From positions 1 to 37,547 of the forward strand of contig CAYPON010000002.1 in NCBI GenBank assembly GCA_964412315.1: a DNA stretch of 37,547 bases, written 5' to 3'. The notes beneath the pieces were generated by a model that was given only the letters and a program-made list of their open reading frames with translations, ran no database searches and had not been told where the DNA came from. Positions 1-37,547 of this stretch are shown here, piece after piece. This DNA is from an uncultured Anaerolineae bacterium (lineage in GTDB: Bacteria; Chloroflexota; Anaerolineae; JAAYEA01). A program made the position numbers and the translations under genes. Each line of letters starts with the position of its first letter. The stretch's first letter is position 1.

Positions 1-361
1 CTTCCACATTCACTGTCACAAACACATCCTCTTTGACGACCGAGATGTGGTTCAGGAGTTCAAGCGCATCTATACCCAACTCCAACTCGCCAATGGTTTT
101 CCAGGCGACCTGGGCGCTGGAGAGCGCGGAAGCGAACTCGTTGCGGGCAGCAATTAGCTCTTCAGCGGAGGTCTTCGTGCCTGTCGGCGAGAAGAGGGGG
201 TCCGATGCGACCACTTGCAGCCGCACGGTTGCCCGATAGACCGGCGGTTCCGTAGCCACCATGGCAACGATAATACCGATGGTAACGACCATGAGCAGCA
301 GGATAAGCCACAAGCGTTTCCGAATCACGCGAAAATAAGTCACAAATTCGTTCGCATCCAT
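1..361 (-). CDS. Wzz/PCP-type polysaccharide chain-length determinant protein, N-terminal part only (gene continues past the left edge)
   Basis: Absent from the ORF track because it is open-ended. The reverse-complement frame from ATG 361..359 reads MDANEFVTYFRVIRKRLWLILLLMVVTIGIIVAMVATEPPVYRATVRLQVVASDP... with no stop down to position 1. It has a short N-terminus, one TM helix, then PVYRATxxLxV as in Wzz/PCP N-terminal domains. An alternative GTG start at 343..341 would make a GTGA overlap with the upstream stop (342..340). Confidence 0.6.
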   Translation of the reverse strand, partial: MDANEFVTYFRVIRKRLWLILLLMVVTIGIIVAMVATEPPVYRATVRLQVVASDPLFSPTGTKTSAEELIAARNEFASALSSAQVAWKTIGELELGIDALELLNHISVVKEDVFVTVNVE

Positions 362-1581
362 TCATCTTTTCCTTTCTTGGCAAGGCAATGGCCTGATAGG
401 GTCAAGGTGATAAGTTCCGAGATCCTTTCCACTCGATCGCCCCATGTATTGTGCGAGGCGAATTCCTGACGACGGCGAATGAGGGCGGCATCGCACTCGG
501 CCAGGGCCTCGCACACCTGCTGACAGAAAGCCTGCTCGTTTTCGGCGATATAGATGAGGCCAGGACTGAAGCCGCGCACCGCAGGGATCGCGGTGGAGAC
601 GACAGGCTTGCCTGCGGCCAGATATTCGTACAATTTGAGCGGATTGATGTGAGCCGTCCACTCGTTTAGCTTATAGGGCATTAAGCAAACCTGACATGCA
701 TGAACGTAACGAGGCACTTCCGACACCGGCTTGGCTCCCAATAGGTGAACGTTCGGCAGTTCCAACTTATGTAAGCCCGTAAAGTCCAGACGCAAATCCA
801 CCGGGCCGACCAGGATGAGCGAGCCGGAGGCGCACGTTTCGGCCACGCGGCGGAGCAGATCGTAATCCAATTTCTCGTTTACGGCCCCGATGTAACCGAT
901 GATTGGCTTGGGCAGCCCGGCCAGATCAGCGGGAGGCTCCGCGTTGCGCAGGGATTCGGAAGCGAAAGCCTCGTAATCTACCCCGTTGGGAACCCAATGC
1001 ATATTCGCATTATAAGCTCGCTTGCGCTCCAGTAAAGAAGCGGAGGTAACGATGACCAGATCGGCGGCCTGGAGCAGTGCGTGCTCGCTCCGCTCGACGC
1101 TGGCACGACGGCTTTCGCTATAGATCGTCGTGAATTCAGCCTCGTAAGCCGCGTACTCATCCACGATGTGGTAAATCACCAACTTTTCGCCAAACCTCCC
1201 CACAAGATCGCCCATGTTGGGCCGGTACAGCCACAGGATTGGCGATCGGAAACCTAACCGCCACATGGTGTTTTTCATTTGCGTCTCGCGCAGCCACCGG
1301 AATAAGGTGTTGAGAGGGAAGCGACCGCTGATCGGTGCGTAAGCCGGCGGGTGATAAACCCACAGATTCCCTCGCACCTGGGTCACCAGCGGCGTCCCGA
1401 AGTCGGCCCAACTGATTCTCCCCTCGCGCCAATCTCGCCAAACACCCCTCAAGTAAGGGCGAGGCTCGACGAAAAGAACTTTGTTGCGGGCGGCCAGGCG
1501 AGACATGATTTGATGGCGATTTCGCCAGATATGTTGCCACTTTTCGGGCGCAAAGCAAAGTATGCTCTCACCCTCGATCAT
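340..1581 (-). CDS. Glycosyltransferase family 1 (GT-B fold, GT4/TuaH-like)
   Basis: 413-aa ORF. The C-terminal half has GT1 signatures (IIGYIGAVNEKLDYDLL; EX7E-type PLKLYEYLAAGKPVV). ATGA start/stop overlap with the upstream GT1 at 1578..1581. Confidence 0.85.
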   Translation of the reverse strand: MIEGESILCFAPEKWQHIWRNRHQIMSRLAARNKVLFVEPRPYLRGVWRDWREGRISWADFGTPLVTQVRGNLWVYHPPAYAPISGRFPLNTLFRWLRETQMKNTMWRLGFRSPILWLYRPNMGDLVGRFGEKLVIYHIVDEYAAYEAEFTTIYSESRRASVERSEHALLQAADLVIVTSASLLERKRAYNANMHWVPNGVDYEAFASESLRNAEPPADLAGLPKPIIGYIGAVNEKLDYDLLRRVAETCASGSLILVGPVDLRLDFTGLHKLELPNVHLLGAKPVSEVPRYVHACQVCLMPYKLNEWTAHINPLKLYEYLAAGKPVVSTAIPAVRGFSPGLIYIAENEQAFCQQVCEALAECDAALIRRRQEFASHNTWGDRVERISELITLTLSGHCLAKKGKDEWMRTNL

Positions 1582-2657
1582 CTTTCGCGTCCCTCGTGCT
1601 TTTTCCTGCCTTCGTGTTCCAGGGTTCCCGCATACGCCTGCAAGTGCTGTCGCGCGATTACGCGCCAGTCAAGCTCTCGCGCCAGAGCGAAAGCTTCTGC
1701 GCTGGCAGAAACGAGGTCAAACTGGCGCGCCTGTCGCAGGGCGTTCAACAGAGCATGTGGGTCCTGCGCATTATACAGCAAGCCGCGCCGCTCGCCTACC
1801 AACTGCGGAAAGTCGCCGAGGCGGGGCACGATCACAGGTTTGCCGAAAGAAAAGGCTAGTATCGCCGCTCCCGAGGTCGTGGCGTGAAGATAGGGCAGGA
1901 CGCAGACATCAGACGCATTCATGAAATACTGTATCTCCTCCGGCGGCACATAAGCAAGACTGAGGATCACCCGTTCATCCTGGGCCGCCAGAGCCTTGAT
2001 GCGTTCCCCATATGCCGGGTCGTGCACATGGCCGGCGATGATCAGCTTGCAGTCGCGCCCCGGCAGCCGCCCGAAAGCCTTCAGCAACTCCTCGATTCCC
2101 TTATAGGGGCGGATTTGCCCCAGGGCGAGGTATACAAAGGTCTGTTGCGGGATACCGAACCTCGCCCGCGCTTCCTCCCTGGAGCAGGTGTTGGGATACG
2201 ACATATAGTTGCCATGCGGGATGACTACGAGGCTCCGCTGGCAACCGAATCGCTCCGCCACAGCCGCCCGTGTGCGCTCGTCATGGACGTGGACAATATC
2301 CGCCACTTTGAAGAGAAGGGCGTTTGCCGTCCTGTTGAGGAGCGAGTAGCGCCCCTCATGTTGCTCCAGATTATGAACCGTATAGGCGATACGGGCACTT
2401 GCGAGTTTGGCCAATCCCAGGCCGCTGATGAAGCGGAGCCACTTCCGCCAGGCACCCCGCCAGGTGTTGGAAGCATAAAGCAACTCCGTCCAATGGAGAT
2501 GCAGCACATCTATCTCCCGCCGTTTCCGCCAGAGCCAGCAGGGGGAAAGATCATCTCGGATAGTGCAGGTGACTCCTGGGGCGATTTGCTCCATGGCGGC
2601 GGCCAGCAAGGTAACGTAGGGATTCATTTGCACGCGCGAGACAAAGACAACGTTCAA
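1578..2657 (-). CDS. Glycosyltransferase family 1 (GT-B fold, GT4-like)
   Basis: GT1 C-terminal domain (FVYLALGQIRPYKGIEELL, ...VCVLPYLHATTSGAAILAFSFGKPVIV). The track ORF start (2732) would overlap the flippase gene by 79 nt. An in-frame TTG at 2657..2655 gives M-NVVFVSRV (a typical GT first beta-strand) and a TTGA overlap with the flippase stop. AAGAGG lies just upstream. Confidence 0.85.
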   Translation of the reverse strand: MNVVFVSRVQMNPYVTLLAAAMEQIAPGVTCTIRDDLSPCWLWRKRREIDVLHLHWTELLYASNTWRGAWRKWLRFISGLGLAKLASARIAYTVHNLEQHEGRYSLLNRTANALLFKVADIVHVHDERTRAAVAERFGCQRSLVVIPHGNYMSYPNTCSREEARARFGIPQQTFVYLALGQIRPYKGIEELLKAFGRLPGRDCKLIIAGHVHDPAYGERIKALAAQDERVILSLAYVPPEEIQYFMNASDVCVLPYLHATTSGAAILAFSFGKPVIVPRLGDFPQLVGERRGLLYNAQDPHALLNALRQARQFDLVSASAEAFALARELDWRVIARQHLQAYAGTLEHEGRKKHEGRER

Positions 2658-4183
2658 ATCGCCTCTTTTCCTTGCCACTTGGCGCTGAGCCGAGAGAGCC
2701 ACTCTCTCCCACGCTGTTGCCCCTCTCGCCATGACGACCGGGCCAGATTGCGGAATTCAGCGTCTATCAGCCAGGTCAGCAACCCATATACCCCAAACAT
2801 CACCAGGCCCGCCAAAGGCAGGGCGATGATCACCGGCCTGCGCCAGGCGAGATCAAAGAAAAGATAAGGATAGACCAGCTTGGCGGCTGTCACCGCGATC
2901 AGCGAATTGGTGAAGATGGGGAGGAGCATCCGCAGAAAATCGCCTGTCGGCAGACCGACGAGACGATTGGTCAATACCATCGAGAGGAAAAAGTCCAGCA
3001 CGGCCACAACTGCGGAGAGCGCGCTGACGCCGACAATCCCATAGTATCGCGTGGCGGGGTAAAGGCCGATCACCATCACCGCCAGGCGCAAGATGGCAAT
3101 GCCCACCAGCCAGTGGGGCTTCCCGCCTGCCTTGAACACATTGCCCATATTGGCCGCTATCGAGCGCATGAGGCCATAGACCCCCAGGAGTTGCAAGGGC
3201 AGGATGGCCGGCGCCCAGGTCTTGCCATAGACGCCGTTGATGAAATCGCTGGCGAAAGCGATGATACAAATCGCTGCTGGCACGGCGACTAAAGACGCAT
3301 AACGGGTCGTCTTCAGGTAAATATCGCGCAGTATCTCGAGATTATCTTGAACCTTAGAAAAGGCCGGGAAAGTCACCTGGCCCACCAGGCGCGTGATTTG
3401 TGTCGCCGGCAAGTTCGAGGTTTTGTAAGCGAAACCATAATAGCCCAGTTGGGTAGGTCCCAACAGTTTGCTCACGAAGGCGTCGTCTGTGTTGGTGATT
3501 AAAAAGACGAGCACATGGCTGCCCACGATACTCTTGCCGTAGCTGAACATCTCCCTGGCGGTCTGCCAATGAAAGCGCCACCTGGGCCGCCAGGGGCAGA
3601 CGAACCAGATCACTGTCGCGGCCAGGGTCGCCTCGAACAGATAGCCGGACACGAGGCTCCATACGCCCAGCCGGGCCACAGCAAGGGTGATGGAAAGGAT
3701 AGCCCCTCCCAAAGCCCCAACCATCTCAGGGACAATCTTGCGCCGGAAATTCAGATCCTTGGCCAGGAGGATGGTCGGCACCTGGCCGATGGAGGATATG
3801 ACCATCGTCAGGGCTAGCACGCGCAGCACAGGGACGGCTTGTGCAACAGAGGAAGCGTCCTTGCTGACCAGGCTCATCAACGGCTCGGCGGCGAAAAGGG
3901 CGACCAGATAGAGCAGCGCGCTGCTCAAAACGATCGCTGTGAAGGCGGTGTCCGCTGCCTTTTCCAGGTCATCTCGCCGATAGATGAGGGCCGAGCCGAA
4001 TCCCAACTCTCGGAAAAGTTCCAAAGCCGCAATGCCCAAAAACGCGACTTGCACCAGGCCGAAGTCGGCAGGGAGGAGGAGCTTGGCCAGGATCAACATC
4101 TGAAGGGCAGAGAACGCCTTGGTTACTACAGTAGCTACCCCCACCCAGAAAACGCTTATGGCTGTTTGACGTTTGACGGCCAT
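2654..4183 (-). CDS. Wzx-like oligosaccharide/polysaccharide flippase (MOP superfamily, polysaccharide biosynthesis protein)
   Basis: 509-aa ORF, hydrophobic throughout (about 12-14 helices). The N-terminus VFWVGVATVVTKAFSALQMLILAKLLLPADFGLVQVAF..LGFGSALIYRRD is characteristic of Wzx/RfbX-type proteins. GAGG lies upstream of the ATG. Confidence 0.85.
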   Translation of the reverse strand: MAVKRQTAISVFWVGVATVVTKAFSALQMLILAKLLLPADFGLVQVAFLGIAALELFRELGFGSALIYRRDDLEKAADTAFTAIVLSSALLYLVALFAAEPLMSLVSKDASSVAQAVPVLRVLALTMVISSIGQVPTILLAKDLNFRRKIVPEMVGALGGAILSITLAVARLGVWSLVSGYLFEATLAATVIWFVCPWRPRWRFHWQTAREMFSYGKSIVGSHVLVFLITNTDDAFVSKLLGPTQLGYYGFAYKTSNLPATQITRLVGQVTFPAFSKVQDNLEILRDIYLKTTRYASLVAVPAAICIIAFASDFINGVYGKTWAPAILPLQLLGVYGLMRSIAANMGNVFKAGGKPHWLVGIAILRLAVMVIGLYPATRYYGIVGVSALSAVVAVLDFFLSMVLTNRLVGLPTGDFLRMLLPIFTNSLIAVTAAKLVYPYLFFDLAWRRPVIIALPLAGLVMFGVYGLLTWLIDAEFRNLARSSWREGQQRGREWLSRLSAKWQGKEAI

Positions 4184-4193: not shown

Positions 4194-4889
4194 TCATCCG
4201 CCTTCTTTTCGCCCCACCAATACGAAATCTCGCGCGAAAAGAGAAGGCCATTTGTGTGCCAGCCAGGTATATATGTCGCGGATAGCCGGCCAGCGCAGCA
4301 AAGTAGGATAGAACTCCTTCACCCACAAGCTGGCGCTGCCATCCCTCTCCAGGACTTTGATCCCTCGTCGCTTGAGCAGTTCCTCGGCCTCGCGGATCGT
4401 GAAAAAACGCAGATGAGTCAAATCCGTGGGCGAGTTCCGCATGTACGGGAACCTGCCGAAAAGAATCCACAGACGGCAGCGCCAATGAGCGACATTAGGC
4501 AAGCAAAGCAAGAATTTGCCTCCCTTGCGCAGGACGCGCACACATTCATCCAGGGAGCGGTCGAAGAAGAAGCGGTGTTCGATCGCCGAGTTAGAGACGA
4601 CGGTCTCGAACGTTTCACCGGCAAAGGGGAGAGCCTCCGTGTCCAGATCCACCTGAGTGACCTCGAACCCTTTGGCGCGGGCGCGGTCCACAGCCACCGC
4701 CGATAGATCAGTGCCCACAACTGTAGCGCCTCGTTCGCGCATCATCTCGGCCAGCACGCCAGGGCCACAATCCACTTCCAGGACGTTCTCTCCCGGCCCG
4801 ATCCGCTCGGCGATAAGGCGCAGCCGCGCCAGGTCAAAAGTATCACCCATTTTGCGCCAATAAGCATCATAATACTCGGCGAGATTCAC
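4194..4889 (-). CDS. Class I SAM-dependent methyltransferase
   Basis: SAM-binding motif I VLEVDCGPGVLA, followed by an acidic residue after beta-2 (VVGTDLS). GTG start in a GTGA overlap with the stop of the upstream radical SAM gene (4886..4889). Confidence 0.85.
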   Translation of the reverse strand: MNLAEYYDAYWRKMGDTFDLARLRLIAERIGPGENVLEVDCGPGVLAEMMRERGATVVGTDLSAVAVDRARAKGFEVTQVDLDTEALPFAGETFETVVSNSAIEHRFFFDRSLDECVRVLRKGGKFLLCLPNVAHWRCRLWILFGRFPYMRNSPTDLTHLRFFTIREAEELLKRRGIKVLERDGSASLWVKEFYPTLLRWPAIRDIYTWLAHKWPSLFARDFVLVGRKEGG

Positions 4890-6307
4890 TTGGTCGCGCT
4901 CCTGATATGCACGCGCATCTGTAGGGGTTTCAGAACCCTCTGGATGCCAGTGCGCAGCCTGTTAAGCAGCCGGTATAGACGGTATCTCAACGGGCTTCTC
5001 TTTTTCAAAAACAGCTCTTTCTTTAGCTCCTGGAAGCGATCATAGCCGCGTGCCAATTCCTCACGCGAGAGGGTGGGCAACTGCAAGATGCTCTCCCGCT
5101 CATAATAGCCGGTCAGGGTTTCTCCCTCCCGCAGATAACCTTCCCGCACGCTGACCTCGTATAATTCTGTCATGGGATATGGGTAGAAAACCGAGAACTG
5201 GAACTTGTCGGGGACAAGCTCGCGATTCAAGGCGATGGTCTCCTCGATCATTTCAGGCGTTTCCTCTGGAATGCCGATCATATTACAAGTATAGGTCTGA
5301 ATCCTATAGCGGTGCAACAGGTGAAAGGCACGCCGGAAATCGTCATTAGACATCTGCCGTTTCAGGATTTTGTTGCGCAGCCACTCATTGCCGGACTCTA
5401 CCCCGATGCGGACACCCTGGCATCCAGCCTCGGCCAACATGCGAACGAGGTCTTCGTCCAAACATTCCACGCGGGTGTTGATCCAGAAAGGCAGGGAAAA
5501 CTCGGCGCGATAAGCGCGGCAGAATTCCTCCGTCCAGCGGCGATCCAGGGTAAAGGTGTCGTCCTGAAAGTTCAGGGAGGCGACATGATACCGTTCCTGA
5601 AGCGAACGTACCTCTGCCAAAAGGTTGGAAACTCCCCGAAAGCGCACATATTTGCCCAAGCCTCTGTACCGCTTTTTCAGAGCGGGATTGCAGCAATAAG
5701 AACAGCTATAAGGGCAGCCTCGCCCGGCTATCATGTCCGCCTGGTAGCCATTCTGTTCCAGTATCTCCGCGTAGCCGAACAGCTCGCGGTCGGGAAAGGG
5801 CAGCACGTCCAGGTTGGTAATCAGGGGGCGCAAGGGATTTCGCATGATCTCGTCGCTCTTCTTATCGCGCACCCAAAGGTTCTGGATGTGCAGGATGCTT
5901 TTTCCGTTGGTCAGGGCATTGGCCAGATCCAAGAGCGGGTACTCCCCTTCGCCCACGCAGACAGCATCCAAATTCCTGTCGGCGATGACCTGCTCTGGAA
6001 CCAACGTGGGATGCACTCCACCCGCTATTGCAAAGGGAGCAGGATTCGCTTCCTTGAGCCAGGCGGCGCAACGGACGATAAAGGGGTGTTGGTGCGTCGT
6101 CGAGGAGAAAGCCACTACGTCGGGCGAGGCCGCCGCGATGTCGCGCAGGAACTCCTCACGAGAAGGCTCCTTTTGCAGGTAGATCAGGCGGGTCTCGAAA
6201 CCTGCCTGTTTCAGGACACTGGAAAGATAGCCGATGCCATGGTAGAACTTTTTGCTTCCGTAGTGCTCGACACCGCCGATGTCTGGATACACAAAGCAGA
6301 TGCGCAT
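4886..6307 (-). CDS. B12-binding-domain radical SAM protein (class B architecture)
   Basis: 473 aa. The N-terminal flavodoxin-like domain (MRICFVYPDIG.., VVAFSSTTHQ, AIAGGVHPTL) is followed by the CX3CX2C cluster motif GRGCPYSCSYCCN and a TIM-barrel-like core (GVRIGVESGN). Confidence 0.85.
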   Translation of the reverse strand: MRICFVYPDIGGVEHYGSKKFYHGIGYLSSVLKQAGFETRLIYLQKEPSREEFLRDIAAASPDVVAFSSTTHQHPFIVRCAAWLKEANPAPFAIAGGVHPTLVPEQVIADRNLDAVCVGEGEYPLLDLANALTNGKSILHIQNLWVRDKKSDEIMRNPLRPLITNLDVLPFPDRELFGYAEILEQNGYQADMIAGRGCPYSCSYCCNPALKKRYRGLGKYVRFRGVSNLLAEVRSLQERYHVASLNFQDDTFTLDRRWTEEFCRAYRAEFSLPFWINTRVECLDEDLVRMLAEAGCQGVRIGVESGNEWLRNKILKRQMSNDDFRRAFHLLHRYRIQTYTCNMIGIPEETPEMIEETIALNRELVPDKFQFSVFYPYPMTELYEVSVREGYLREGETLTGYYERESILQLPTLSREELARGYDRFQELKKELFLKKRSPLRYRLYRLLNRLRTGIQRVLKPLQMRVHIRSATK

Positions 6308-11565: not shown

Positions 11566-11580
11566 TTAGCCAGTTGACAT

Positions 11581-25007: not shown

Positions 25008-25388
25008 TCACTCCTCTTTCGACTCTGGCTCCGCCGATAGGCGTTTTTCCAACTGCTGCACTTTTTTCGTCAGGATGGCGAGGTCCTGGGCCAGGGTCTT
25101 GATCTGCTCGCTGAATTTAGAGATGCTTATGGAGAATTGAAACAAAATGAACAGCACGCCCAGGAAAGCGATCAAAAACATCAGAGCGGGGGGATACTCG
25201 ACTCCCACTGCATAGGAGATAACATCCAAAAGATCAACAGCGAGCGAAGCGATCACCAGCACAATCGCCGTTAGCAGCCATAGCAAGGCGTACTCCTCCT
25301 TTAGCTTCTTGGTGCGCACCAGATTGATGACGAAGAGCAGAGTCGCCACGCTCAAAATGACAACGAGTATCCTCGCCCGAAAGAGCAT
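25008..25388 (-). CDS. DUF2304-like small membrane protein (3 TM helices + C-terminal coiled-coil)
   Basis: MLFRARILVVILSVATLLFVINLVRTKKLKEEYALLWLL... matches my memory of the DUF2304 family that accompanies GT2 genes. ATG 25388 is preceded by AGGAGG with a 6-nt spacer. The track's longer start (25460) would overlap the upstream gene and adds a non-hydrophobic Arg-rich extension. Confidence 0.7.
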   Translation of the reverse strand: MLFRARILVVILSVATLLFVINLVRTKKLKEEYALLWLLTAIVLVIASLAVDLLDVISYAVGVEYPPALMFLIAFLGVLFILFQFSISISKFSEQIKTLAQDLAILTKKVQQLEKRLSAEPESKEE

Positions 25389-30199: not shown

Positions 30200-30839
30200 T
30201 CTCTGTCAGGCTGAGTGGGGCTGATGAGCCGCCTGGCTTCATCTGGGCCTGCGCGAGGGGCAAGTAATACAGGTTCATCTTGCGGCCATACAGTTCAAAG
30301 CCCCCCACAATTTGGAAGCCGTAGTTAACATAAAAGGCATTGGCTGCGGAGTTCGCCGCGTCCACTGTGACTTTGAAGGCGATAGCCCCCCGCCGGCGGC
30401 TCTCTTCGCTTAAAGCGTCGAGCAACTGGGTGCCGATGCGTCGGCGCCGCGACTGGTCTCTGACGCCGATAAAGAGAAGCTCCGCTTCCCCAGGCTCGAT
30501 ATCTAGCTTGTCGGGATAAAAAAACGTTTGCAACACCTTGGCCAGAAGCGAAGGATGCCGGATCAACCGACAGAGCGTGGGTAGGGCCAGGTGTGCCCCC
30601 TCTCTGGTCATAAGCTCCCTGAACAGCGCATGGGTGTCATTGGTGCCTATGGCCACGCCCAAAGCATCGTCCCCTTCCATGGCGACATAGCCATAGCCCC
30701 ATTTGGAATCGCTAAGCCCGGCATAGAAGGCCGTGAGAAAGCCCTCGCCCAGAGTCGTGAGAAACGTCCCCGGTTGCCCTTCTATGTGCAACAGCGCCGC
30801 CGCGCGCGCGTCCTCTCGCTGTACCTTGCGGATTTCCAT
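30189..30839 (-). CDS. GNAT-family N-acetyltransferase (copy 2 of a tandem pair)
   Basis: 216 aa. Acetyl-CoA motif A-like VRDQSRRRRIGTQLLDAL. Alignable end to end with the 30848..31489 product (MEIRKVQREDARAAALLHIEGQPGTFLT.. vs MEIREIRREDCRGAAQVHMEGQPGTFLT..). Confidence 0.75.
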   Translation of the reverse strand: MEIRKVQREDARAAALLHIEGQPGTFLTTLGEGFLTAFYAGLSDSKWGYGYVAMEGDDALGVAIGTNDTHALFRELMTREGAHLALPTLCRLIRHPSLLAKVLQTFFYPDKLDIEPGEAELLFIGVRDQSRRRRIGTQLLDALSEESRRRGAIAFKVTVDAANSAANAFYVNYGFQIVGGFELYGRKMNLYYLPLAQAQMKPGGSSAPLSLTESEV

Positions 30840-30847: not shown

Positions 30848-31489
30848 CTATCCCCTTTGGGTCTCATTCTTTGCTTGGCTCACCGAGTCGGCCTTGCTTT
30901 CCTGGTAAGGGTAGGAATACAGGTTCATCTTTCTTCCGTACAGGTCAAAGGTCTTGATCAGGCGAAAGGGCCTTTTGACATGCATGGCATTGGATACCGG
31001 GTTAGCCGCATCCACTGTGGACAGGAGAGCAGTGGCTCCTCGCCGGCGCGTATCCTCGATGAGCGTGTCCAGCAATTGGCTGCCGATGCGCTGACGCCGC
31101 GCCTTGGCGCTGACGCCCATAAAGAGAAACTCGGCCTCCCCGGGCTGTTCACCCAGCTTATTGGGGTAGAAGAGGGTCTGGAGGATTTTGATGATAAGGG
31201 AAGGGTCTTTGAGCACCTGGCGCAGCACAGGGAAGAACAGGCGAGGCCCTTGTTTGAGGATGAACTCTTTGAACATCGTGTGCGTGTCGGTAGTGGCAGT
31301 GACCACTCCCAAAACCTCGTCTCCTTCGACGGCGACAAAACCATAGCCCCACGAGGAATCAGCCAGCACGCGATAAAAAGTCGTGAGGAACGTTTCGCCC
31401 AAGGAGGTGAGAAAAGTCCCCGGCTGCCCCTCCATGTGCACCTGCGCTGCCCCGCGGCAATCTTCTCGTCGTATCTCGCGTATCTCCAC
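30848..31489 (-). CDS. GNAT-family N-acetyltransferase (copy 1 of a tandem pair)
   Basis: 213 aa. Motif A-like VSAKARRQRIGSQLLDTL. GTG start directly abutting the aminotransferase stop. Confidence 0.75.
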   Translation of the reverse strand: MEIREIRREDCRGAAQVHMEGQPGTFLTSLGETFLTTFYRVLADSSWGYGFVAVEGDEVLGVVTATTDTHTMFKEFILKQGPRLFFPVLRQVLKDPSLIIKILQTLFYPNKLGEQPGEAEFLFMGVSAKARRQRIGSQLLDTLIEDTRRRGATALLSTVDAANPVSNAMHVKRPFRLIKTFDLYGRKMNLYSYPYQESKADSVSQAKNETQRG

Positions 31490-32593
31490 TTACCCCTCCA
31501 CGTTGTCCTTGAGGACCTGGCATATCTGGGTTATTTGTTGCGGCGTCAGTGTTGCCGATGAGGGCAGATTCAGACCTTTTCGCGAAAGCTCCGTGGCTAC
31601 AGGAAACTCCTGGCCTTCGGCTCCGGCCTGGTAAGGCGGCATAGTGTGAATAGGGTAGAAGAAGGGACGGCTGTCTATGTCGCGTGCTTTCAGTTCTTTC
31701 ATCAACTCGTCGCGGGCCAGGCCGTAGCTATCCTCCGCCAGTATGGAGTACATCCAGTACACATTCCGCGCCCAGGAGGCTTCAGGCGGCAGGCTGATGC
31801 CCGGCACACTCCGCAACAGGCCATTGTAGAGAGCGGCATTTCGCCTCTTGGCGGCGATGATCTCCTCGATACGCTCCAATTGGGCTACGCCGAGGGCTGC
31901 CTGCAGATTGGTGAGCCGATAGTTAAAGCCGATTTCGGGATGCCAGTACCGCTTCTCTTTCGACATGCCGTGGTCGCGCAGGGAACGCGCCCGTTCCGCC
32001 CACTCCGCGTTGTCGGTGAGCACCATGCCACCCTCGCCGGTGGTGATGATCTTGTTGCCGTAAAAGCTGAAGCAGGACATATCGCCCAGCGAACCCGCCC
32101 GCCGGCCTTTGTAAAGCGCGCCATGGGCCTCGGCAGCATCCTCGATCACATAGAGATGGTGACGCTTGGCGATTTCGAGGATGGGATCCATATCGGCGGG
32201 ATGGCCGTAGAGGTGCACGGGGATGATCGCCTTGGTGCACCCCGTTATCTTTTCTTCTATCCGCGCCGGATCCATGTTCCAGGTCTGCGGCTCGGAGTCC
32301 ACGAAGACGGGGCGCGCGCCGGTGTAGGTGACGGCGTTAGCCGTGGCGATAAAGGTCAGCGTGGGCACGATCACCTCGTCCCCCGGCCCGATGCCCAGCA
32401 CGGCCAACCCCAAGTGTAAAGCGGTAGTGCCATTGCTGGTGGCAATGCCATACTTTGCCCCACAGTACTGGCTGAAGCGCTCCTCAAACTCCCGCACGTA
32501 TTTGCCAAGCGATGACACCCAGCCGGTTTTGATGCAGTCCGTAACGTATGCTAATTCGTTCCCCCCCAGCGAAACGTCTGTCACAGGTATCAT
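31490..32593 (-). CDS. DegT/DnrJ/EryC1/StrS-family PLP-dependent sugar aminotransferase (perosamine-synthase-like)
   Basis: GNELAYVTDCIKTGWVSS.GKYVREFEERFSQYCGAKYGIATSNGTTALHL, DAAEAHGA, and the PLP-lysine motif SFYGNKIITTGEGGM. Confidence 0.9.
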   Translation of the reverse strand: MIPVTDVSLGGNELAYVTDCIKTGWVSSLGKYVREFEERFSQYCGAKYGIATSNGTTALHLGLAVLGIGPGDEVIVPTLTFIATANAVTYTGARPVFVDSEPQTWNMDPARIEEKITGCTKAIIPVHLYGHPADMDPILEIAKRHHLYVIEDAAEAHGALYKGRRAGSLGDMSCFSFYGNKIITTGEGGMVLTDNAEWAERARSLRDHGMSKEKRYWHPEIGFNYRLTNLQAALGVAQLERIEEIIAAKRRNAALYNGLLRSVPGISLPPEASWARNVYWMYSILAEDSYGLARDELMKELKARDIDSRPFFYPIHTMPPYQAGAEGQEFPVATELSRKGLNLPSSATLTPQQITQICQVLKDNVEG

Positions 32594-32625
32594 GGGTCTT
32601 CTCCTCTATTCAAGTAGGAACGCTA

Positions 32626-34221
32626 CTATTGGCCCGCAGCAATCCTCTTCCTCAGGTCGAAGATTAGATATGTCTTACTCTTGGCTACTATAGGGAATTC
32701 CCTGCTCAGCACTTGTTTCAAATCCTTCTGCGCTTCAAATTCCCCGAAATTTGTAACAATGAAATATTCGGAGAAGCCTGCCTTGATCATCTTATTCAGG
32801 CGCTCCTCTACATTTAGTTCTTGCTTTCCCAGCAGTTCTCGTTGCCGGAGGGCGCCTCCTGCAGGCCAGAGTTGCCCAGAGAGTTCCCCGTAATATTGGA
32901 GCGGCATTCCGTTGTAGAAAGACATCAAGATAGTTTTAGTGCTGTGTCCAACAGCCTCGCCAATTTCCTGGGCTACACTTACTTCGCGGGCGAAGTCAGG
33001 AGCAAGCCCCCATGTCTTTGTAGAGGGGCTGATAAATGTTACCACGAGAAGCGCGCCCCAGACAACCAGGCGCCAAATCCATCCCGCACGGGCCTGACCC
33101 AAACGGCTCGAGATTAGAGCGCCTGCGGAGCCTAAGGAAAGGGCCACAATGGGGATAAGCTGCAAATGATAATACTGGTGAGTATGGATGTGCCAATTGA
33201 ATACCAAGCCGAAGACAATATAGCCGATCCATAATCCTATCAGCAAGGCTGTCAGCGATCCGCGGCGGAGCATGAGGAGCCCCAAAAGCGCCCCTATGAG
33301 AGCAACATACCCGATCGCGTGATTGATTAGCCTGAGCCACTTCTGCCAAAAAAGCGGGGAGAACAGCAGTTGAGGGAGGAATCTTCCTCCGATTAGCCCT
33401 CGCAGATATCCAGTGATGAACATGCCGTACACGAAGAACAAAACGGTCGGCAAAAGGCTCATAATTGCAAATAACCAAAGGTTGCGACTAGCCGCCGTCC
33501 TCCGAACGCCTTGTCTGAAAATGCTGAGCGAGATGAATGCTCCGAATATGACAAATAGGCAAATGGGGGGCTTGACAAACAGGGCCAGACCTGAGACGAT
33601 GGCTGCGATCACCAACCTGCGCAGCGATGGCCGCGCATGATACCGCCATATGGCAAAAAGGCTAGCCAGAAACAACATGATCATCAACGGATCCGGCTGG
33701 AAACTCATGCTTGCGGCTATGCTGAAGGGAAGAAAGAGATAGAACGCCATAGAAAAGGCCGCGGCTTCGATGGAGATCAACTCCTTGGCGAGCAAGTAGA
33801 GGAAGGCCCCGCCTATCAACCAGAATATCGAGGACAGCAATCGTGGAACCCAGAGTTTTTCCCCCCCGATAGCGCGATAGGCAAGGGCTGTTATGGTTTC
33901 CATGATCGGAAGCTCAGGGTTCCTTCTCATGCTAGCGATTGCGACCTGTTTTCTCCATTCAGGAATTGACTCCAGGTTCCTAAAATAGTATCCCCTGGCA
34001 ATGAGAGCAGAAAGATAGTGGCGCATAGGAGCAAATCCAGAAGGCTCGTCAATGTGGTAGAATCTGATTCCTAAAGCTGCAATGAACAAAGAGCTAATAA
34101 TAAGCAACCATAATCCCCTTTTTAAGGGAAAGCGCTGTTTCCCCTGAGTTGGTTCAGATTGCGATTCGGCTTGCATTGTAGTGGCCTCCTGAGCTAGCTT
34201 GAGCGCCATGACTGGCGACAC
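32626..34221 (-). CDS. GT-C fold glycosyltransferase, ArnT/PMT_2-like
   Basis: 531 aa, polytopic (about 11 or more helices), with a C-terminal soluble domain of about 110 aa. IRFYHIDEPSGFAPMRHYLSALIARGYYF is the first-loop acidic motif. Its last 142 nt are 88% identical to 37406..37547. The start is GTG 34221 or ATG 34209. Confidence 0.75.
   Translation of the reverse strand: MSPVMALKLAQEATTMQAESQSEPTQGKQRFPLKRGLWLLIISSLFIAALGIRFYHIDEPSGFAPMRHYLSALIARGYYFRNLESIPEWRKQVAIASMRRNPELPIMETITALAYRAIGGEKLWVPRLLSSIFWLIGGAFLYLLAKELISIEAAAFSMAFYLFLPFSIAASMSFQPDPLMIMLFLASLFAIWRYHARPSLRRLVIAAIVSGLALFVKPPICLFVIFGAFISLSIFRQGVRRTAASRNLWLFAIMSLLPTVLFFVYGMFITGYLRGLIGGRFLPQLLFSPLFWQKWLRLINHAIGYVALIGALLGLLMLRRGSLTALLIGLWIGYIVFGLVFNWHIHTHQYYHLQLIPIVALSLGSAGALISSRLGQARAGWIWRLVVWGALLVVTFISPSTKTWGLAPDFAREVSVAQEIGEAVGHSTKTILMSFYNGMPLQYYGELSGQLWPAGGALRQRELLGKQELNVEERLNKMIKAGFSEYFIVTNFGEFEAQKDLKQVLSREFPIVAKSKTYLIFDLRKRIAAGQ
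32641..32782 (-). repeat. Direct repeat partner of 37406..37547 (3' ends of two paralogous GT-C genes, offset 4765 nt)
   Basis: Hand alignment without gaps gives 125/142 identical. This includes a 45-nt exact run, 32737..32781 = 37502..37546. Confidence 0.85.
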
Positions 34222-34287
34222 GAGCTACGCTTTGCCTATTTGAGCCTTAACCTGACGGCGGAGGTGAAAGCGTCACTGGATTGCCTG

Positions 34288-34956
34288 TCACGGTATCTGC
34301 TGTGGCTTGACTGCCACAATCCAGGCCTGGCTACCCATTATGCCCCAGATAGGCGGAAACAACAGGTACAGGCGAACGAGAAAGGGATGTTGTGGAATAC
34401 GGCTACGGGTAGTATAAGGCAGGAATCTCGGACGTACCTCTATTACCTTCAAACCAATCACAGTCACTGCCTCTACCAGGGTACGGTCTGTCAGAGGTAT
34501 CTGATGATCAACAAAGTCCCAATAACTTCCGCCCAGAAAGCGTATGTTCGGCTGAAGCACGAGCAGCTTCGCCCCAGGGCGCAAAATGCGGTATACTTCG
34601 GCCAAAGATGCGATGAAAGTGCGCTTATCTGGCAAGTGCTCAAAAAAGTTACTAGCAAATACAATATCCACTGAGTTGTCAGCTATTTTGCCCTTCAGAG
34701 AGTGCGCAGGAGCAATGATAACTCGAGTTCCCTTCGGCGCAAACTGTGTTACCTGTGAATCAAGATCAACGGCAATACGCTCTTTGCATTGAATGTAGCG
34801 GAGGAACTCGCAGAATCCGGCACCAAGATCGAGCACCGTCGCATCGCTCGAGACATACTTTTGGAAGAAATAGCGACATAGCACTCGCCAGATGGCATCC
34901 TTGGCTGCGCGATCCTCCTTCGAAAAGCGATTTGCGTATACCGTCGTTAAATCCAC
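34288..34956 (-). CDS. Class I SAM-dependent methyltransferase
   Basis: Motif I VLDLGAGFCEFL, VDIVFASNFFEHL, LRPGAKLLV. GTG start. Confidence 0.8.
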   Translation of the reverse strand: MDLTTVYANRFSKEDRAAKDAIWRVLCRYFFQKYVSSDATVLDLGAGFCEFLRYIQCKERIAVDLDSQVTQFAPKGTRVIIAPAHSLKGKIADNSVDIVFASNFFEHLPDKRTFIASLAEVYRILRPGAKLLVLQPNIRFLGGSYWDFVDHQIPLTDRTLVEAVTVIGLKVIEVRPRFLPYTTRSRIPQHPFLVRLYLLFPPIWGIMGSQAWIVAVKPQQIP

Positions 34957-34980
34957 CGTCTTCTTTTCTCCCCTCTTCGC

Positions 34981-36006
34981 TTAACGCCATTGCTTACCAT
35001 AGCCAGAGGACCTTAGAATCTTATTCCGCAGATTACGCCCTACACATATATCCCACACGGCATAATAGAGCCGTGCCCCCCAACAGCATATCACAAACAA
35101 AGGTGTGTCAAAGGCCAACCAACGAACAAACGATCTTCTTAACGCTAACTCTAACCAAGACACTACATTGTGCTTTGCCGGGACGAAACGCTTCGTGACC
35201 TCTGCGATGGGTTCTCCCACCACAATTATATTCTTGTGGTCTGCTACACCCAAGCCATGGCGGGCACACAACTGCAAATGCTCAATTCTATCTGGGTCAA
35301 AGCCCATGACCTGCGCAGCGACAACATCCAATGCTACTAGATCGCCTGAAGCTAGTACTAGGCCCATCTCTTTCGGCCGTCCGGCCTTCGGGCCGTTGCC
35401 TTCCAGAGCAATTGTGCCATCCATCACCGCAAAGCGTGGCCGAACTATAGCGTTGACATCAACTAGGGCCTGCGATAGTACCAAATGAAAACTGTGACGT
35501 AGCGTCTGTAAGCAGCCCCACTGATTTTTGACAGCTCCACTTATCGTCGTCTTGTTGTGGGTCTTCATCAAAGGGATAGTGATGACCTCAGTACGAGTCA
35601 AGATCTCGGGGATATAGATATCCTTGAGTACTAAATGATCATCGTTTAGCAAACGCACAAAGTTCCCGCGAGACATATTCACCCACTGGATATCGTACTT
35701 TTTGCATACTGCGTCAAGGCGTGTACTGCGCAGTGCATCCTCAACGTTGACAACCACTTGGCTAGACTCAACCATATAGACTCTCCCGACATAATCTCTA
35801 ATGGTCTGTATAACACCTTCTACAACCCACGGCGCGCTAACAGCACCAGGGATTAAGATGTCCCAACCGAGATTGACCTTGAGAGACACATCCGCACCAG
35901 GCGAAATAAACTGATGCCAGTTGACTAACTCCATTGCACGCTGGACGCCTTCATAGATCATTTCTGGTGAGACACGCACGAGGCTAACAACGGATTGGTC
36001 ACTCAT
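34981..36006 (-). CDS. DUF362-domain protein (function unknown)
   Basis: 341 aa. ADVSLKVNLGWDILIPGAVSAPWVVEGVIQTIRDY, IPLMKTHNKTTISGAVKNQWG and AVMDGTIALEGNGP match my recollection of the DUF362 pattern (KPNL.., K.H....T...KN..G, DG..g.eG.GP). It has a hydrophobic C-terminal tail. GAAGGA RBS. Confidence 0.65.
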   Translation of the reverse strand: MSDQSVVSLVRVSPEMIYEGVQRAMELVNWHQFISPGADVSLKVNLGWDILIPGAVSAPWVVEGVIQTIRDYVGRVYMVESSQVVVNVEDALRSTRLDAVCKKYDIQWVNMSRGNFVRLLNDDHLVLKDIYIPEILTRTEVITIPLMKTHNKTTISGAVKNQWGCLQTLRHSFHLVLSQALVDVNAIVRPRFAVMDGTIALEGNGPKAGRPKEMGLVLASGDLVALDVVAAQVMGFDPDRIEHLQLCARHGLGVADHKNIIVVGEPIAEVTKRFVPAKHNVVSWLELALRRSFVRWLAFDTPLFVICCWGARLYYAVWDICVGRNLRNKILRSSGYGKQWR

Positions 36007-36036
36007 TTGGGTTCCTTCTAACAGAAATGAGAGACA

Positions 36037-37362
36037 TTACACATTCCCCGTAGAGCGTTCAGTTTCTACTATGGTCAACGCAACTTTGTGTGCTAAGTCT
36101 ATAGTGCTGCTGATAGTACGATCTGCTGGGTAGAGTTGGCTTGATTCAATCAGATAAAGGTTACGAATGGGCGTCACGTGTGCAGGGATGCGTTGAGCAA
36201 AGTCGTTGGTGCAAATCACTTGGGCAAATGGGTCTCTCGTCACAGCATAATCTATGATCCAATCAACATTAAAATCACGACTCACAATCGTCAGAGCTTT
36301 AGCACACTCTTGAAGCAGTTGCTCGTCGCTATAGTGGAAACGTTCATGCTTGTGAGGCAAGTAATAAGGCACATATAGAACCGCAGAGCCATCAGATGTA
36401 GCTTGCTTATTGAGATTAGTGTACTCAATACAACCATTAAAAGGCACACGTGGGTCATTGATGTTCAGCCAGAAATTTCCAGTTAGAGGGTAACGCAGGC
36501 GTAATATCAGACAGATTACTCCAATAAAGTCTATCGCAGCAAGCTTGCTGCGATAGTCTGGCGGCAGGTCCGGTGTCAGGTGCAAGAAAACAGGCAAGGG
36601 CACAGCCGATACGACATAGTCGAAATGCCAACGCTGCCCATCAGTAGTGTGCAGTCCCCAAACTTGGCCATCATCTACTATGATCTTTGCCACTGGCCGG
36701 CTAAGCATAACACTGCCTCTATGTTGTCGCAACTCCTGCACTAACGATTTGATGAAAATGTCCGTGCCTCCCTCAAGATATCCTAACATCTCACGATGCA
36801 AAGGCGTCTTGCGTGACTGGGCCACCCGATGAATGCGATGCCAAACCCACGCCGCCGAGATCCGATCATGGTATTCGCCAAACTTGACTTTGAGCAGAGG
36901 ATACCAAGTGACCATGTACGTGTTATAACCCAACAGACGCATTAGCCATTGCTCGGCAGGTATTTGATCCAAATGCCGCCAATGATTAACGAATAAACAA
37001 TACAGAATCAAAAAACCGTAACGGAATCGTCCCACTACATTGGTACCGCCGAACTTGAGAAGATCAAAGCCAGAACTGAACGGATACAACTTGCCTTGAT
37101 TGAAAAACCCCATCTTTGTGGGTTTCCAGCGCAGCTTGTCTTCTATTCCTAGCTCACGCAGTTTGCGAAAATAGCCAATGTCACCAGCACAAATAAAATG
37201 GTAATAACGTTCAATGTGGATATCGCCGAACTGAAACGATCGAGCCAGTCCACCCAGTTCAGACGTGGCCTCAAACAGAGTGACTTGGTGTCCAGCACGG
37301 CTAAGGTCATGCGCCAGTGCCAAACCTGCTGCCCCGCCGCCTACGACGCCTACTTTGCTCAT
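36037..37362 (-). CDS. NAD(P)/FAD-dependent oxidoreductase (amine-oxidase / phytoene-desaturase / HemY-like fold)
   Basis: Dinucleotide motif KVGVVGGGAAGLALAHDLSRAGHQVTLFEATSELGGLARS. ATG 37362 is preceded by GGGAAGGG. The track's TTG 37407 start would overlap the upstream paralogous GT-C gene. Confidence 0.8.
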   Translation of the reverse strand: MSKVGVVGGGAAGLALAHDLSRAGHQVTLFEATSELGGLARSFQFGDIHIERYYHFICAGDIGYFRKLRELGIEDKLRWKPTKMGFFNQGKLYPFSSGFDLLKFGGTNVVGRFRYGFLILYCLFVNHWRHLDQIPAEQWLMRLLGYNTYMVTWYPLLKVKFGEYHDRISAAWVWHRIHRVAQSRKTPLHREMLGYLEGGTDIFIKSLVQELRQHRGSVMLSRPVAKIIVDDGQVWGLHTTDGQRWHFDYVVSAVPLPVFLHLTPDLPPDYRSKLAAIDFIGVICLILRLRYPLTGNFWLNINDPRVPFNGCIEYTNLNKQATSDGSAVLYVPYYLPHKHERFHYSDEQLLQECAKALTIVSRDFNVDWIIDYAVTRDPFAQVICTNDFAQRIPAHVTPIRNLYLIESSQLYPADRTISSTIDLAHKVALTIVETERSTGNV

Positions 37363-37387
37363 ACCCTTCCCTAGAGTTATGCCGACG

Positions 37388-37547
37388 TTACTGTTTGCTG
37401 GAGCCAATCCTTTTCCTTAGGTCGAAGATCTGGTATCTCTTATGCTTGGCTACTAAGGCGAATTCGTTGCTCAGCACTTGTTTCAAATCCTCCTGCGCGT
37501 TAAATTCCCCGAAATTTGTAACAATGAAATATTCGGAGAAGCCTGCT
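37388..37547 (-). CDS. 3' end of a further ArnT/PMT_2-like GT-C gene (paralogue of 32626..34221); gene begins beyond the right edge
   Basis: The open-ended reverse frame reads ..AGFSEYFIVTNFGEFNAQEDLKQVLSNEFALVAKHKRYQIFDLRKRIGSSKQ* (stop 37390..37388). It is nearly identical to the C-terminus of the 32626..34221 product (..GFSEYFIVTNFGEFEAQKDLKQVLSREFPIVAKSKTYLIFDLRKRIAAGQ*). Confidence 0.65.
   Translation of the reverse strand, partial: AGFSEYFIVTNFGEFNAQEDLKQVLSNEFALVAKHKRYQIFDLRKRIGSSKQ

Follow-up and report, generated by a model that had tools for sequence, protein, structure and literature searches.

An array of co-directional envelope-glycan genes in an uncultured Anaerolineae bacterium and the polymer it may build

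Does a long, closely packed run of glycan genes build one surface polymer, or does it bring together several pathways that happen to lie side by side? This question is raised by a stretch of 37,547 nucleotides (nt) from an uncultured Anaerolineae bacterium (Chloroflexota; GTDB lineage JAAYEA01), hereafter called the window, which is the whole of contig CAYPON010000002.1 (here C2) in the draft assembly GCA_964412315.1 (403 contigs, 3.5 Mb, 87% complete). The window carries 31 genes, g01 to g31. A preliminary description, made from the sequence alone, saw in them one uninterrupted envelope-glycan supercluster mixing three assembly logics: (i) Wzx-dependent parts; (ii) parts for extracytoplasmic glycosylation by glycosyltransferases (GT) of the GT-C type, fed by polyprenyl-phosphate sugars; and (iii) tailoring enzymes.

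The computational analysis reported here supports one envelope-glycan locus. The most likely reading, with rather more for it than against it, is that this locus makes one complex extracytoplasmic glycopolymer, whose backbone is built by the Wzx/Wzy route and then decorated by GT-C enzymes outside the membrane. The claim of three assembly logics was overstated, as the first two groups together correspond to a known two-stage strategy and the enzymes of the third one tailor the donor or the polymer and are no route of assembly in themselves. Actually, a Wzx/Wzy backbone combined with extracytoplasmic GT-C glycosylation from polyprenyl-phosphate sugars is established for Gtr, GacIJKL, PpgS/Rv3632/Rv3779 and three-component systems (Kelly et al., PMC11127046). 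Every product of the locus belongs to a known family; the scale of the array and its radical-enzyme sugar editing are uncharacterised. The locus is a strong candidate for encoding a major surface polymer, because it holds the longest same-strand run of the genome, contains nine of the genome's 31 matches to the GT-C family PMT_2 and stays together in at least five families.

Extent, packing and conservation of the array

The 31 co-directional genes were confirmed through the chain of open reading frames (ORFs) and inspection of start codons: 30 genes plus one 5'-cut gene at 37388-37547. All recognisable genes are on the minus strand, as had been described; a Pfam scan of the six long plus-strand ORFs of the window gave zero domain matches. 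The coding fraction of the window is ~98%. Spacers, said to be mostly 0-35 nt, measure ≤35 nt in 25 of 30 cases (median 9.5), 4-nt overlaps occur at 1578-1581 (ATGA), 2654-2657 (TTGA), 4886-4889 (GTGA) and 18593-18596 (GTGA) in the minus-strand reading, and exactly three gaps exceed 100 nt: 11480-11648 (169 nt), 15646-15769 (124 nt) and 16826-16931 (106 nt). No terminator-like site lies inside any intergenic gap of the window, scans for tRNAs and Rfam families gave no hit there, and the promoter and terminator scans yielded about as many sites as shuffled sequence does; the gap upstream of g08 has a promoter-like site at 11565-11537. Even with a crude ORF caller, which wrongly splits the C2 array, no other contig of the assembly has a same-strand run as long as that of C2 (19 genes; next best 14, median 2, 95th percentile 6).

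Profile hidden Markov model (HMM) annotation with Pfam and NCBIfam bore out all the family calls of the preliminary description: seven GT-C-like proteins, four GT2, three radical S-adenosylmethionine (SAM) enzymes (two B12-binding and one SPASM, by HMM and fold tests), two methyltransferases, three acyltransferases (one hexapeptide, two GNAT), a deacetylase, a flavin adenine dinucleotide (FAD)-dependent oxidoreductase and a DUF362 protein. Five further genes of the window were outside that list: a DegT aminotransferase, a short-chain dehydrogenase/reductase (SDR), a DUF2304 protein, a secreted protein of 1208 amino acids (aa) and a metallophosphoesterase. Among NCBIfam equivalog cut-offs, the only one reached in the window is that of PRK07233 ("hypothetical protein"), by g30.

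Both window edges cut genes (g01 continues on contig C178 and g31 on C39) and the locus, as expected by the preliminary description, is larger than 37.5 kb: it extends upstream onto C39 and downstream onto C178 and C129. Contig overlaps and synteny give a joined locus of ~65 kb and ~47 genes, of which the window is the central 37.5 kb. The contig order C39, C2, C178, C129, C263 was inferred by overlap and by synteny with G001 and G002, two genomes of the same family. The right end of C2 is overlapped by C39 and by L001, a contig of another assembly (99.8% identical), which was reached by a contig search with g29 and adds only 1 kb at this edge; a contig search with g02 found no match. On C39, the minus-strand array goes on with the remainder of g31, followed by a GT2, another DegT, a polytopic protein of 816 aa (without Pfam match and not significantly similar to g23), two PMT_2 GT-C and a B12 radical SAM enzyme. 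The array ends on the same contig at an insertion sequence-type helix-turn-helix fragment, a GAF-PAS histidine kinase and a secreted protein rich in proline and threonine; G002 has the same C39-type genes and the same upstream boundary. To the left, synteny with G001 places C178 (C-terminal part of Wzz, GT4, methyltransferase, PMT_2 GT-C, Wzy_C protein, GT4) and C129 (GT-C-like gene, two GT4, a NTP_transf_5/thymidylate-kinase-like protein, GT4); C263, which carries two secreted proteins, probably comes next. The locus thus tallied contains 10-12 GT-C, 5 GT2, 7 GT4, 4 radical SAM, 2 DegT and 3 methyltransferases, together with one Wzx, one Wzy and one Wzz.

The comparison collection contains no same-genus genome, and G001 and G002 are its two same-family genomes. 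In G001, which belongs to another genus, 26 window genes and 12 continuation genes (labelled h01 to h12, on C178, C129 and C263) occur in identical order with 47-80% identity, running from g25 to g01 and then from h01 to h12, and the contig opens with the end of g26; in G002 the order is likewise collinear, over two contigs. Beyond the family, G031 keeps g04 to g21 and g23 collinear, G003 keeps g14 to g23, and family f52 (G109, G144, G069, G175) and G024 carry almost all of these genes as a single co-directional array in which sub-blocks are reordered. The units that move intact are: (i) g01-g06 with GT4, Wzy and GT4; (ii) g07, often duplicated; (iii) g10-g12; (iv) g13-g16; and (v) g18-g21. 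The idea that the blocks are independent loci, adjacent in this genome only, does not hold, since sub-blocks are kept together in other genomes, with almost the full set retained in three families besides that of G001 and G002. Judged by gene order, the blocks are not chance neighbours and appear to form a functionally coupled array of separable modules. Distribution within the class is patchy: the g11 marker is present in 31 of the 301 sampled class genomes, in eight families, and both complete single-contig class genomes sampled lack the locus.

The word "uninterrupted" stands for the gene array in the window but not for a uniform ancestry. The genes g27-g31 (window 32620-37547 plus C39:1-1509) are a recent lineage-specific insertion, because of their low GC content (0.43-0.51 vs 0.55-0.62 elsewhere in the window), the direct repeat that brackets them and their absence from G002. 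This repeat of 162 nt (85% identical; 32620-32781 and 37385-37546) is formed by the GT-C paralogues g27 and g31, and probably caused the assembly break at the right edge. In G002, a C39-type GT2 is followed by 42 nt and then by the g26 orthologue, and no orthologue of g27 was found in the 64 kb of its locus.

The mobility of these units invites a different reading, namely a glycan island where independent pathways (e.g., exopolysaccharide, glycolipid and wall-polymer decorations) are co-located and share polyprenyl-phosphate chemistry and perhaps regulation. Such an island would be consistent with sub-blocks that move separately between families, with a g10-g12 block that stands alone in family f38 and lies within different glycan loci in other phyla, with the recent insertion of g27-g31, and with three gaps of more than 100 nt, one of them with a promoter-like site, which allow internal promoters. 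Nevertheless, in five families the set has remained almost entirely contiguous and co-directional although its blocks were reshuffled, which is hard to explain without functional coupling, and a single flippase, Wzy and Wzz are present for the entire array. We therefore regard the island as unlikely.

Proposed backbone synthesis and decoration outside the membrane

The backbone genes lie at the left end of the window and just beyond it. The remainder of g01, which is 69% identical to its G001 orthologue, is a C-terminal portion of 254 aa at C178:7530-6766, with a weak GNVR match. The flippase g04 (~13 hydrophobic segments; PRK10459 219 bits, TuaB 170 bits) is the sole flippase-type gene of the whole ~65-kb locus. 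A Wzy_C protein of 486 aa is encoded at C178:1237-2697 (70.1 bits vs a cut-off of 31.7), ~6 kb past the left edge, and its gene is syntenic in G001, G024 and family f52. The earlier statement that Wzy, initiating transferase and ABC exporter are missing was right within the window, but not for Wzy beyond it; the extension proposed in the same description thus retrieved a polymerase but no linked initiating transferase. Candidate phosphoglycosyltransferases occur elsewhere in the genome (6-7 Bac_transf and 3 Glycos_transf_4). One of them, which lies on C49 close to genes that weakly match those of G001, was set aside, as its context is probably paralogous and none is encoded on G001:C24. Members of the GtrA family are lacking in the own genome and in 5 of 6 relatives (six of seven genomes), despite dozens of GT-C genes. 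For the membrane crossing of polyprenyl-monophosphate sugars, the only candidate flippase is the MOP protein g04, which is needed also for the repeat unit.

Family membership suggests how a first stage might proceed. An unlinked phosphoglycosyltransferase would prime polyprenyl phosphate at the cytoplasmic face; seven GT4 (g02, g03 and five on C178 and C129) would assemble the repeat unit; and g04 (Wzx) would flip it, Wzy polymerise it and Wzz (g01) set the chain length.

The second stage, for which characterised analogues offer a further guide, would start with short GT2s that attach single sugars to polyprenyl monophosphate. Four or more donor modules can be distinguished. In the first one, g21 with g19 would make polyprenyl-P-HexNAc (HexNAc, N-acetylhexosamine), like GacI/GacJ and PpgS/Rv3632, and g20 would deacetylate it following an ArnD-type logic. 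The order g21-g20-g19-g18 is kept in G001, G002, G031, G003 and family f52, with only g20 between g21 and g19, and in NCBIfam g21 scores best against PpgS (92.6 bits vs a cut-off of 370). The DUF2304 family of GacJ and Rv3632 binds and stimulates the HexNAc-phosphate-polyprenol synthases GacI and PpgS (10.1101/180810), and g19 is the probable activating partner of g21. Because DUF2304 is the GacJ/Rv3632 family and g21 is nearest to PpgS, the four genes may be read as synthase, deacetylase, activator and GT-C, i.e., as a PpgS/Gac-type module with an ArnD-like deacylation. The deacetylase g20 was also considered as the XrtA/PEP-CTERM equivalog (TIGR03006), with which it shares the domain pair, and rejected (219.7 bits vs a cut-off of 276.2).

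In the second module, g22 would load an amino sugar made by g26 (DegT) and acylated by g24 and g25; together with the YfhO-like g23, these genes read as an amino-sugar donor module served by that GT-C. The GNAT genes g24 and g25 are a tandem duplication (repeat family D4), present as a single copy at the same position in G001 and G002. The third donor would be handled by g10 and g12 with the radical SAM/SPASM enzyme g11. Below their cut-offs, g10 matches AglJ (105 bits) and dolichyl-P-hexose transferase (99 bits), and the hydrophobic segments of g12 span residues 259-338. Finally, g15 with its coupled reductase g14 and the acetyltransferase g13 would yield a deoxy or acetylated sugar. After flipping, the 10-12 GT-C of two classes would transfer the sugars onto the polymer outside the membrane, and the secreted esterase g07 and the phosphoesterase g08 would act on the product outside the cell. 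The substrates and acceptors in this scheme, like the service of all modules to a single product, we infer.

The GT-C enzymes fall into two classes, PMT_2/ArnT-like and YfhO/STT3-like. Four of the seven in the window (g16, g17, g18 and g27) were recognised by PMT_2 (Pfam cut-off 26.1 bits), g09 by its predicted fold, g23 by profile homology and g31 by paralogy. The PMT_2 score of g09 is 24.3 bits in the protein scan and 28.3 bits in a six-frame genome search, and g09 has no PDB sequence match. Its AlphaFold model, made with 11 homologues (mean predicted local distance difference test, pLDDT, 68.7; predicted template modelling score, pTM, 0.75), has a GT-C fold: the top 25 Foldseek matches are all GT-C (STT3, AglB, DPY19, ArnT, AftD and PglB), with E values down to 4e-9 and template modelling (TM) scores of ~0.45-0.49. 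The residues G44-P46-D48-N49 (G-x-P-x-D-N), which follow the first transmembrane helix, are invariant. With hhalign, g23 aligns to the g09 family (probability 96.4%, E 1.2e-9, 351 columns); profile comparison of the PMT_2 protein g17 with the same family found no homology.

Both YfhO/STT3-like genes have peculiarities of their own. g09 contains an in-frame insertion of ~45 residues (~340-385; window 12590-12710), lacking in all 10 aligned homologues and modelled with low confidence, which coincides with a palindromic repeat element; an arm of this element recurs (92% complementary) in g16 at 21217-21242. A 27-nt tandem duplication in g23 (29594-29647; 89% identity) leads to a repeated RHPDVI peptide, located inside a ~33-residue segment without counterpart in the g09 family alignment.

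GT-C richness is a lineage trait, because PMT_2 matches number 31 in the own genome, 36 in G001 and 19 in one complete genome of the class. A second PMT_2-type GT-C cluster, of four genes, is located at C12:3669-14419. Furthermore, G024:C1 (~92600-102700) has a tandem of three or more full-length g09-like GT-C genes, together with partial matches, upstream of its version of the locus.

So many GT-C genes suggest an alternative in which even the main chain would be put together outside the membrane, by the GT-C enzymes and from polyprenyl-monophosphate sugars, in the manner of mycobacterial arabinan and lipomannan. The product would be a GT-C-built lipoglycan, for which g04, like GacK, flips monophosphate donors instead of repeat units. 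This would fit the presence of 10-12 GT-C against only five donor synthases, the tandem expansion of g09-like genes in G024, the lack of a phosphoglycosyltransferase in the locus, and a g04 that is the sole flippase candidate where no GtrA exists; GacK and MATE-like flippases are a precedent. The lipoglycan is nevertheless highly improbable in our judgement, as Wzy_C and Wzz are conserved beside g04 in all array-bearing families, which is the signature of repeat-unit polymerisation. Very little probability goes, likewise, to protein O-glycosylation, whereby the many PMT_2-type GT-C would modify Pro/Thr linkers of secreted proteins (g07 and those of C263 and C39), like actinobacterial PMT and streptococcal Pgf: protein O-mannosyltransferases belong to PMT_2, g22 matches PgfS best, and the array conserves g07, at times in duplicate, with its long Pro/Thr linkers, which recur in the secreted proteins of C263 and C39. 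Such linkers, however, are widespread in secreted proteins of the phylum and not locus-specific, the carbohydrate-binding module and esterase of g07 fit a polymer-modifying enzyme, and the presence of Wzx, Wzy, Wzz and seven GT4 indicates a polysaccharide made of repeat units.

The preferred reading, a Wzx/Wzy-built polymer decorated by GT-C enzymes, has a number of findings against it: (i) no phosphoglycosyltransferase of the WbaP/WecA type is present on C39, C2, C178, C129 or G001:C24, and the genome's single LCP ligase is unlinked to the locus; (ii) a single flippase-type gene would have to serve both the repeat unit and four or more monophosphate donors, as GtrA is lacking; (iii) PMT_2 genes are not special to the locus, which has 9 of 31, with four more together on C12; (iv) specific NCBIfam equivalog scores are all below cut-off, so that no substrate is assignable; (v) in other families the modules stand in another order or are in part absent, down to g10-g12 only in f38, g22-g26 occur only in family f1 (save a g23 homologue in G031 and G003) and g27-g31 only in the source lineage, all of which makes the modules separable; and (vi) a literature search found no paper on the locus and no chemically described envelope glycan of Anaerolineae. 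The architecture of the Chloroflexota envelope is, in any case, still debated.

Several characterised systems share parts of this organisation. The trio g21, g19 and g18 mirrors the genes of GacI/J/K/L (group A carbohydrate of Streptococcus pyogenes) and PpgS/Rv3632/Rv3779 (galactosamine, GalN, on the arabinogalactan of Mycobacterium tuberculosis), in which a short GT2 makes polyprenyl-P-HexNAc with a DUF2304 partner and a GT-C transfers the sugar onto a separately made polymer. In contrast to them, the locus has the deacetylase g20 between GT2 and DUF2304, no separate GacK-type flippase for the module, and an array in which this module is one of at least four. With three-component systems (GtrA/B/C; CsbB/GtcA/YfhO; polyprenyl-phosphoribose synthase/MATE flippase/GT136, PMC11127046) the locus would share the concept of synthase, flippase and GT-C, with candidates for the first two. 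In these systems a Wzx/Wzy- or ABC-made glycan is decorated after polymerisation and auxiliary enzymes diversify the donor; the locus, however, has one MOP protein and no GtrA/SMR flippase, far more GT-C (10-12) and candidate donor synthases (5), and radical SAM enzymes as the presumptive auxiliary donor editors.

The Arn pathway (ArnB, ArnC, ArnD, ArnE/F and ArnT; lipid A aminoarabinose) follows the same logic of aminotransferase, N-acylation, GT2, deacylation and GT-C. Unlike it, the locus has a deacetylase of the TIGR03006-like subfamily and GNATs instead of a formyltransferase, in an organism with no lipid A pathway in evidence; domains of ArnA (decarboxylase/formyltransferase) and ArnE/F were found in none of the ~47 scanned products. 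By this comparison, the locus appears to be an analogue of the Arn pathway and not a member of it. The teichuronic acid genes tuaA-H of Bacillus likewise combine a MOP flippase (TuaB-like), GT4 (TuaH-like and TuaC-like), Wzy_C and a Wzz-type protein, whereas the locus lacks a TuaA-type initiating transferase and a uridine diphosphate (UDP)-glucose dehydrogenase and scores far below the equivalog cut-offs. The GT-C of mycobacterial arabinogalactan and lipoarabinomannan (Emb, Aft, PimE) are also numerous and use polyprenyl-monophosphate sugars outside the membrane; but they are dispersed and belong to other GT-C families, while the locus packs its GT-C co-directionally with Wzx, Wzy and Wzz, in a different phylum.

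Radical SAM enzymes and the g10-g12 trio

AprD4 is a radical SAM diol-dehydratase that requires a reductase partner, AprD3, for the C3'-deoxygenation of apramycin; to our knowledge, it is the only known radical SAM sugar dehydratase. g15 aligns with AprD4 (PDB 6fd2) over residues 11-410 with E 1.1e-30, i.e., at full length, and scores 121 bits against the NCBIfam model NF033070 (cut-off 500); on sequence comparison, g15 would be a relative of AprD4 and not its equivalog. As AprD4 requires a reductase and g14 and g15 share a GTGA overlap, a deoxygenation pair is suggested, with g14 as the likely reductase partner of g15. This resemblance has its limits, as the context of g15/g14 is a cell-envelope glycan, not an aminoglycoside, and g14 is HpnA-like. 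The other B12-binding enzyme, g06, has BchE, HpnJ and PhpK as best NCBIfam matches, all below cut-off. Matches to HpnA, HpnJ, HpnE and HpnI prompted a hopanoid reading, which was rejected: all scores are below cut-off (HpnA 305 vs 368, HpnJ 113-147 vs 578, HpnI 41 vs 310 bits), the neighbours are all glycan machinery, and no cyclase or squalene genes are present in the locus.

The SPASM enzyme g11 is the most conserved protein of the locus, with 50-60% identical relatives in at least six phyla. Its CxxxCxxC motif is invariant (C32, C36, C39) and its AlphaFold model (pLDDT 86) matches the folds of the peptide maturases CteB, SkfB and anSME and of the sugar-acting DesII, BtrN and AbmM. An assignment as BlsE-like uronate decarboxylase, prompted by the best PDB sequence match (E 6.5e-6) and by UDP-sugar dehydrogenase genes close to g11 in distant loci, finds no specific support, as the fold search was led by generic SPASM/twitch enzymes, and is one candidate function among others.

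The trio g12-g11-g10 travels together, at 40-60% identity, in Binatia, Myxococcota, other Deltaproteobacteria-labelled metagenome-assembled genomes, the PVC-group, Thermodesulfobacteriota and Limnocylindria, and more distant relatives occur in Patescibacteria. Outside Anaerolineae its recurrent neighbours are PMT_2 GT-C, MOP flippase, type I phosphodiesterase and UDP-sugar 6-dehydrogenase (in 11 of 32 distant loci a UDP-sugar dehydrogenase gene lies close by), and a Myxococcales trio locus also has a Bac_transf-Wzy_C fusion. The trio appears to be an uncharacterised unit conserved in at least six phyla. A bolder proposal, which we hold as doubtful though worth stating, is that the innermost core of the array, made up of trio, GT-C and MOP flippase, constitutes a phylum-spanning pathway in which the radical SAM enzyme edits a sugar on polyprenyl phosphate before its transfer to the surface by GT-C. 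If this were true, no more elaborate set of modules for editing lipid-linked sugars would be known than that of the Anaerolineae locus, which would combine three or four of them in one array, and its product would be the main envelope glycopolymer of a monoderm-type lineage. In any case, the radical SAM genes that stand beside polyprenyl-phosphate sugar synthases offer expressible enzyme sets for testing the radical editing of lipid-linked sugars before export.

Individual genes and minor observations

The genes of the window are listed in Table 1.

Table 1. Genes of the window, with positions, strand and the evidence for each assignment.
Gene	Assignment	Position	Strand	Evidence and remarks
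g01	Wzz/polysaccharide co-polymerase (PCP) chain-length regulator, N-terminal 120 aa	2..361	-	PF02706 33.2 bits vs 25.5 cut-off
g02	GT4 (GT-B) glycosyltransferase, TuaH-like	340..1581	-	Glyco_trans_1_4 49 bits; TuaH 147 bits, below cut-off
g03	GT4 (GT-B) glycosyltransferase	1578..2657	-	Glycos_transf_1 63.8 bits
g04	MOP-family Wzx-type flippase	2654..4183	-	Polysacc_synt_3 247 bits vs 23 cut-off
g05	Class I SAM methyltransferase	4194..4889	-	MetW, Methyltransf_11, related; always adjoins g06 in relatives
g06	B12-binding radical SAM (class B), 4-nt coupled to g05	4886..6307	-	Radical_SAM 75.6 + B12-binding 68.9 bits
g07	Secreted 1208-aa protein	6321..9947	-	Two DNRLRE/CBM96 modules, alpha/beta esterase domain, SdrD_B fold, long Pro/Thr linkers
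g08	Membrane-anchored metallophosphoesterase (LpxG/YaeI-like)	10016..11479	-	Metallophos 41 bits
g09	GT-C, YfhO/STT3-like class	11649..13727	-	AlphaFold model + Foldseek
g10	Short GT2, polyprenyl-phosphate-hexose-synthase-like (AglJ/DPM type)	13738..14466	-	Glycos_transf_2 83 bits
g11	Radical SAM/SPASM enzyme	14476..15645	-	Radical_SAM + SPASM (Pfam)
g12	GT2, C-terminal membrane segments (GtrB/ArnC-like architecture)	15770..16825	-	Glycos_transf_2 111.5 bits
g13	Hexapeptide-repeat acetyltransferase	16932..17630	-	Hexapep 65 bits; WcaF, WbbJ, LacA-like
g14	NAD(P)-dependent SDR	17631..18596	-	Epimerase 115 bits; HpnA-like 305 vs 368 cut-off; GTGA overlap with g15
g15	AprD4-like radical SAM, candidate sugar diol-dehydratase	18593..19981	-	PDB 6fd2 alignment
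g16	GT-C, PMT_2/ArnT-like	19991..21745	-	PMT_2 33.1 bits
g17	GT-C, PMT_2/ArnT-like	21764..23353	-	PMT_2 80.1 bits
g18	GT-C, PMT_2/ArnT-like	23360..25003	-	PMT_2 52.2 bits; always adjoins g19-g21 in relatives
g19	DUF2304 small membrane protein (GacJ/Rv3632 family)	25008..25388	-	PF10066 91.3 bits
g20	Polysaccharide deacetylase	25414..26268	-	Polysacc_deac_1 75.6 bits + DUF3473 110 bits
g21	Short GT2, PpgS-like polyprenyl-phosphate-HexNAc synthase candidate	26261..27043	-	Glycos_transf_2 81 bits
g22	Short GT2, PgfS/ArnC-like	27058..27756	-	Glycos_transf_2 98.8 bits; PgfS 73, ArnC 54 bits, below cut-offs
g23	GT-C, YfhO-like, g09 class	27725..30199	-	YfhO 36.4 bits, C-terminal end only; at least 9 hydrophobic segments
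g24	GNAT acetyltransferase	30189..30839	-	Acetyltransf_1 38 bits
g25	GNAT acetyltransferase	30848..31489	-	Acetyltransf_1 39 bits
g26	DegT-family sugar aminotransferase	31490..32593	-	DegT_DnrJ_EryC1 451 bits; LegC-family 401 vs 420 cut-off
g27	GT-C, PMT_2 class; first gene of inserted block	32626..34221	-	PMT_2 52.3 bits; GC 0.51
g28	SAM methyltransferase	34288..34956	-	Methyltransf_11 45 bits; GC 0.50
g29	DUF362 protein	34981..36006	-	PF04015 127.8 bits; GC 0.49
g30	FAD-dependent oxidoreductase	36037..37362	-	Amino_oxidase 108 bits; PRK07233 471 vs 252 cut-off
g31	GT-C, C-terminal end	37388..37547	-	Full 503-aa gene on L001 and C39; 80% aa identity to g27

Some of these genes deserve a comment on their limits. 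The start of g03 is a TTG at 2657 with a Shine-Dalgarno-like motif, and the ATG start of g30 at 37362 is also the start of the L001 gene call. The 487-aa form of g08 is backed by a coverage of 0.96 in G001, and its matches to LpxG (119 bits) and YaeI (113 bits) are below cut-off. In g07, the N-terminal hydrophobic segment occupies residues 18-36 and the Pro/Thr-rich runs lie at ~259-275, 974-1040 and 1130-1195. Long Pro/Thr-rich linkers are also found in the secreted proteins of C263 and of C39:15083-16705, and are possible O-glycosylation substrates for PMT_2-type enzymes.

Two observations concern the parts of the locus beyond the window. Within the upstream part of the array, C39:9580-10092 holds an opposite-strand (+) ORF of 170 aa, 48% identical to a similarly placed ORF of G002, which could be a genuine small gene or else only mirror a minus-strand gene that escaped recognition. 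At C129:2490-4616, C129:6335-7450 and C178:1237-2697, the in-frame peptide PLPEGEG(R/K)V(R/K)A is repeated in up to five copies per protein, and these repeats look like a translated dispersed DNA repeat.

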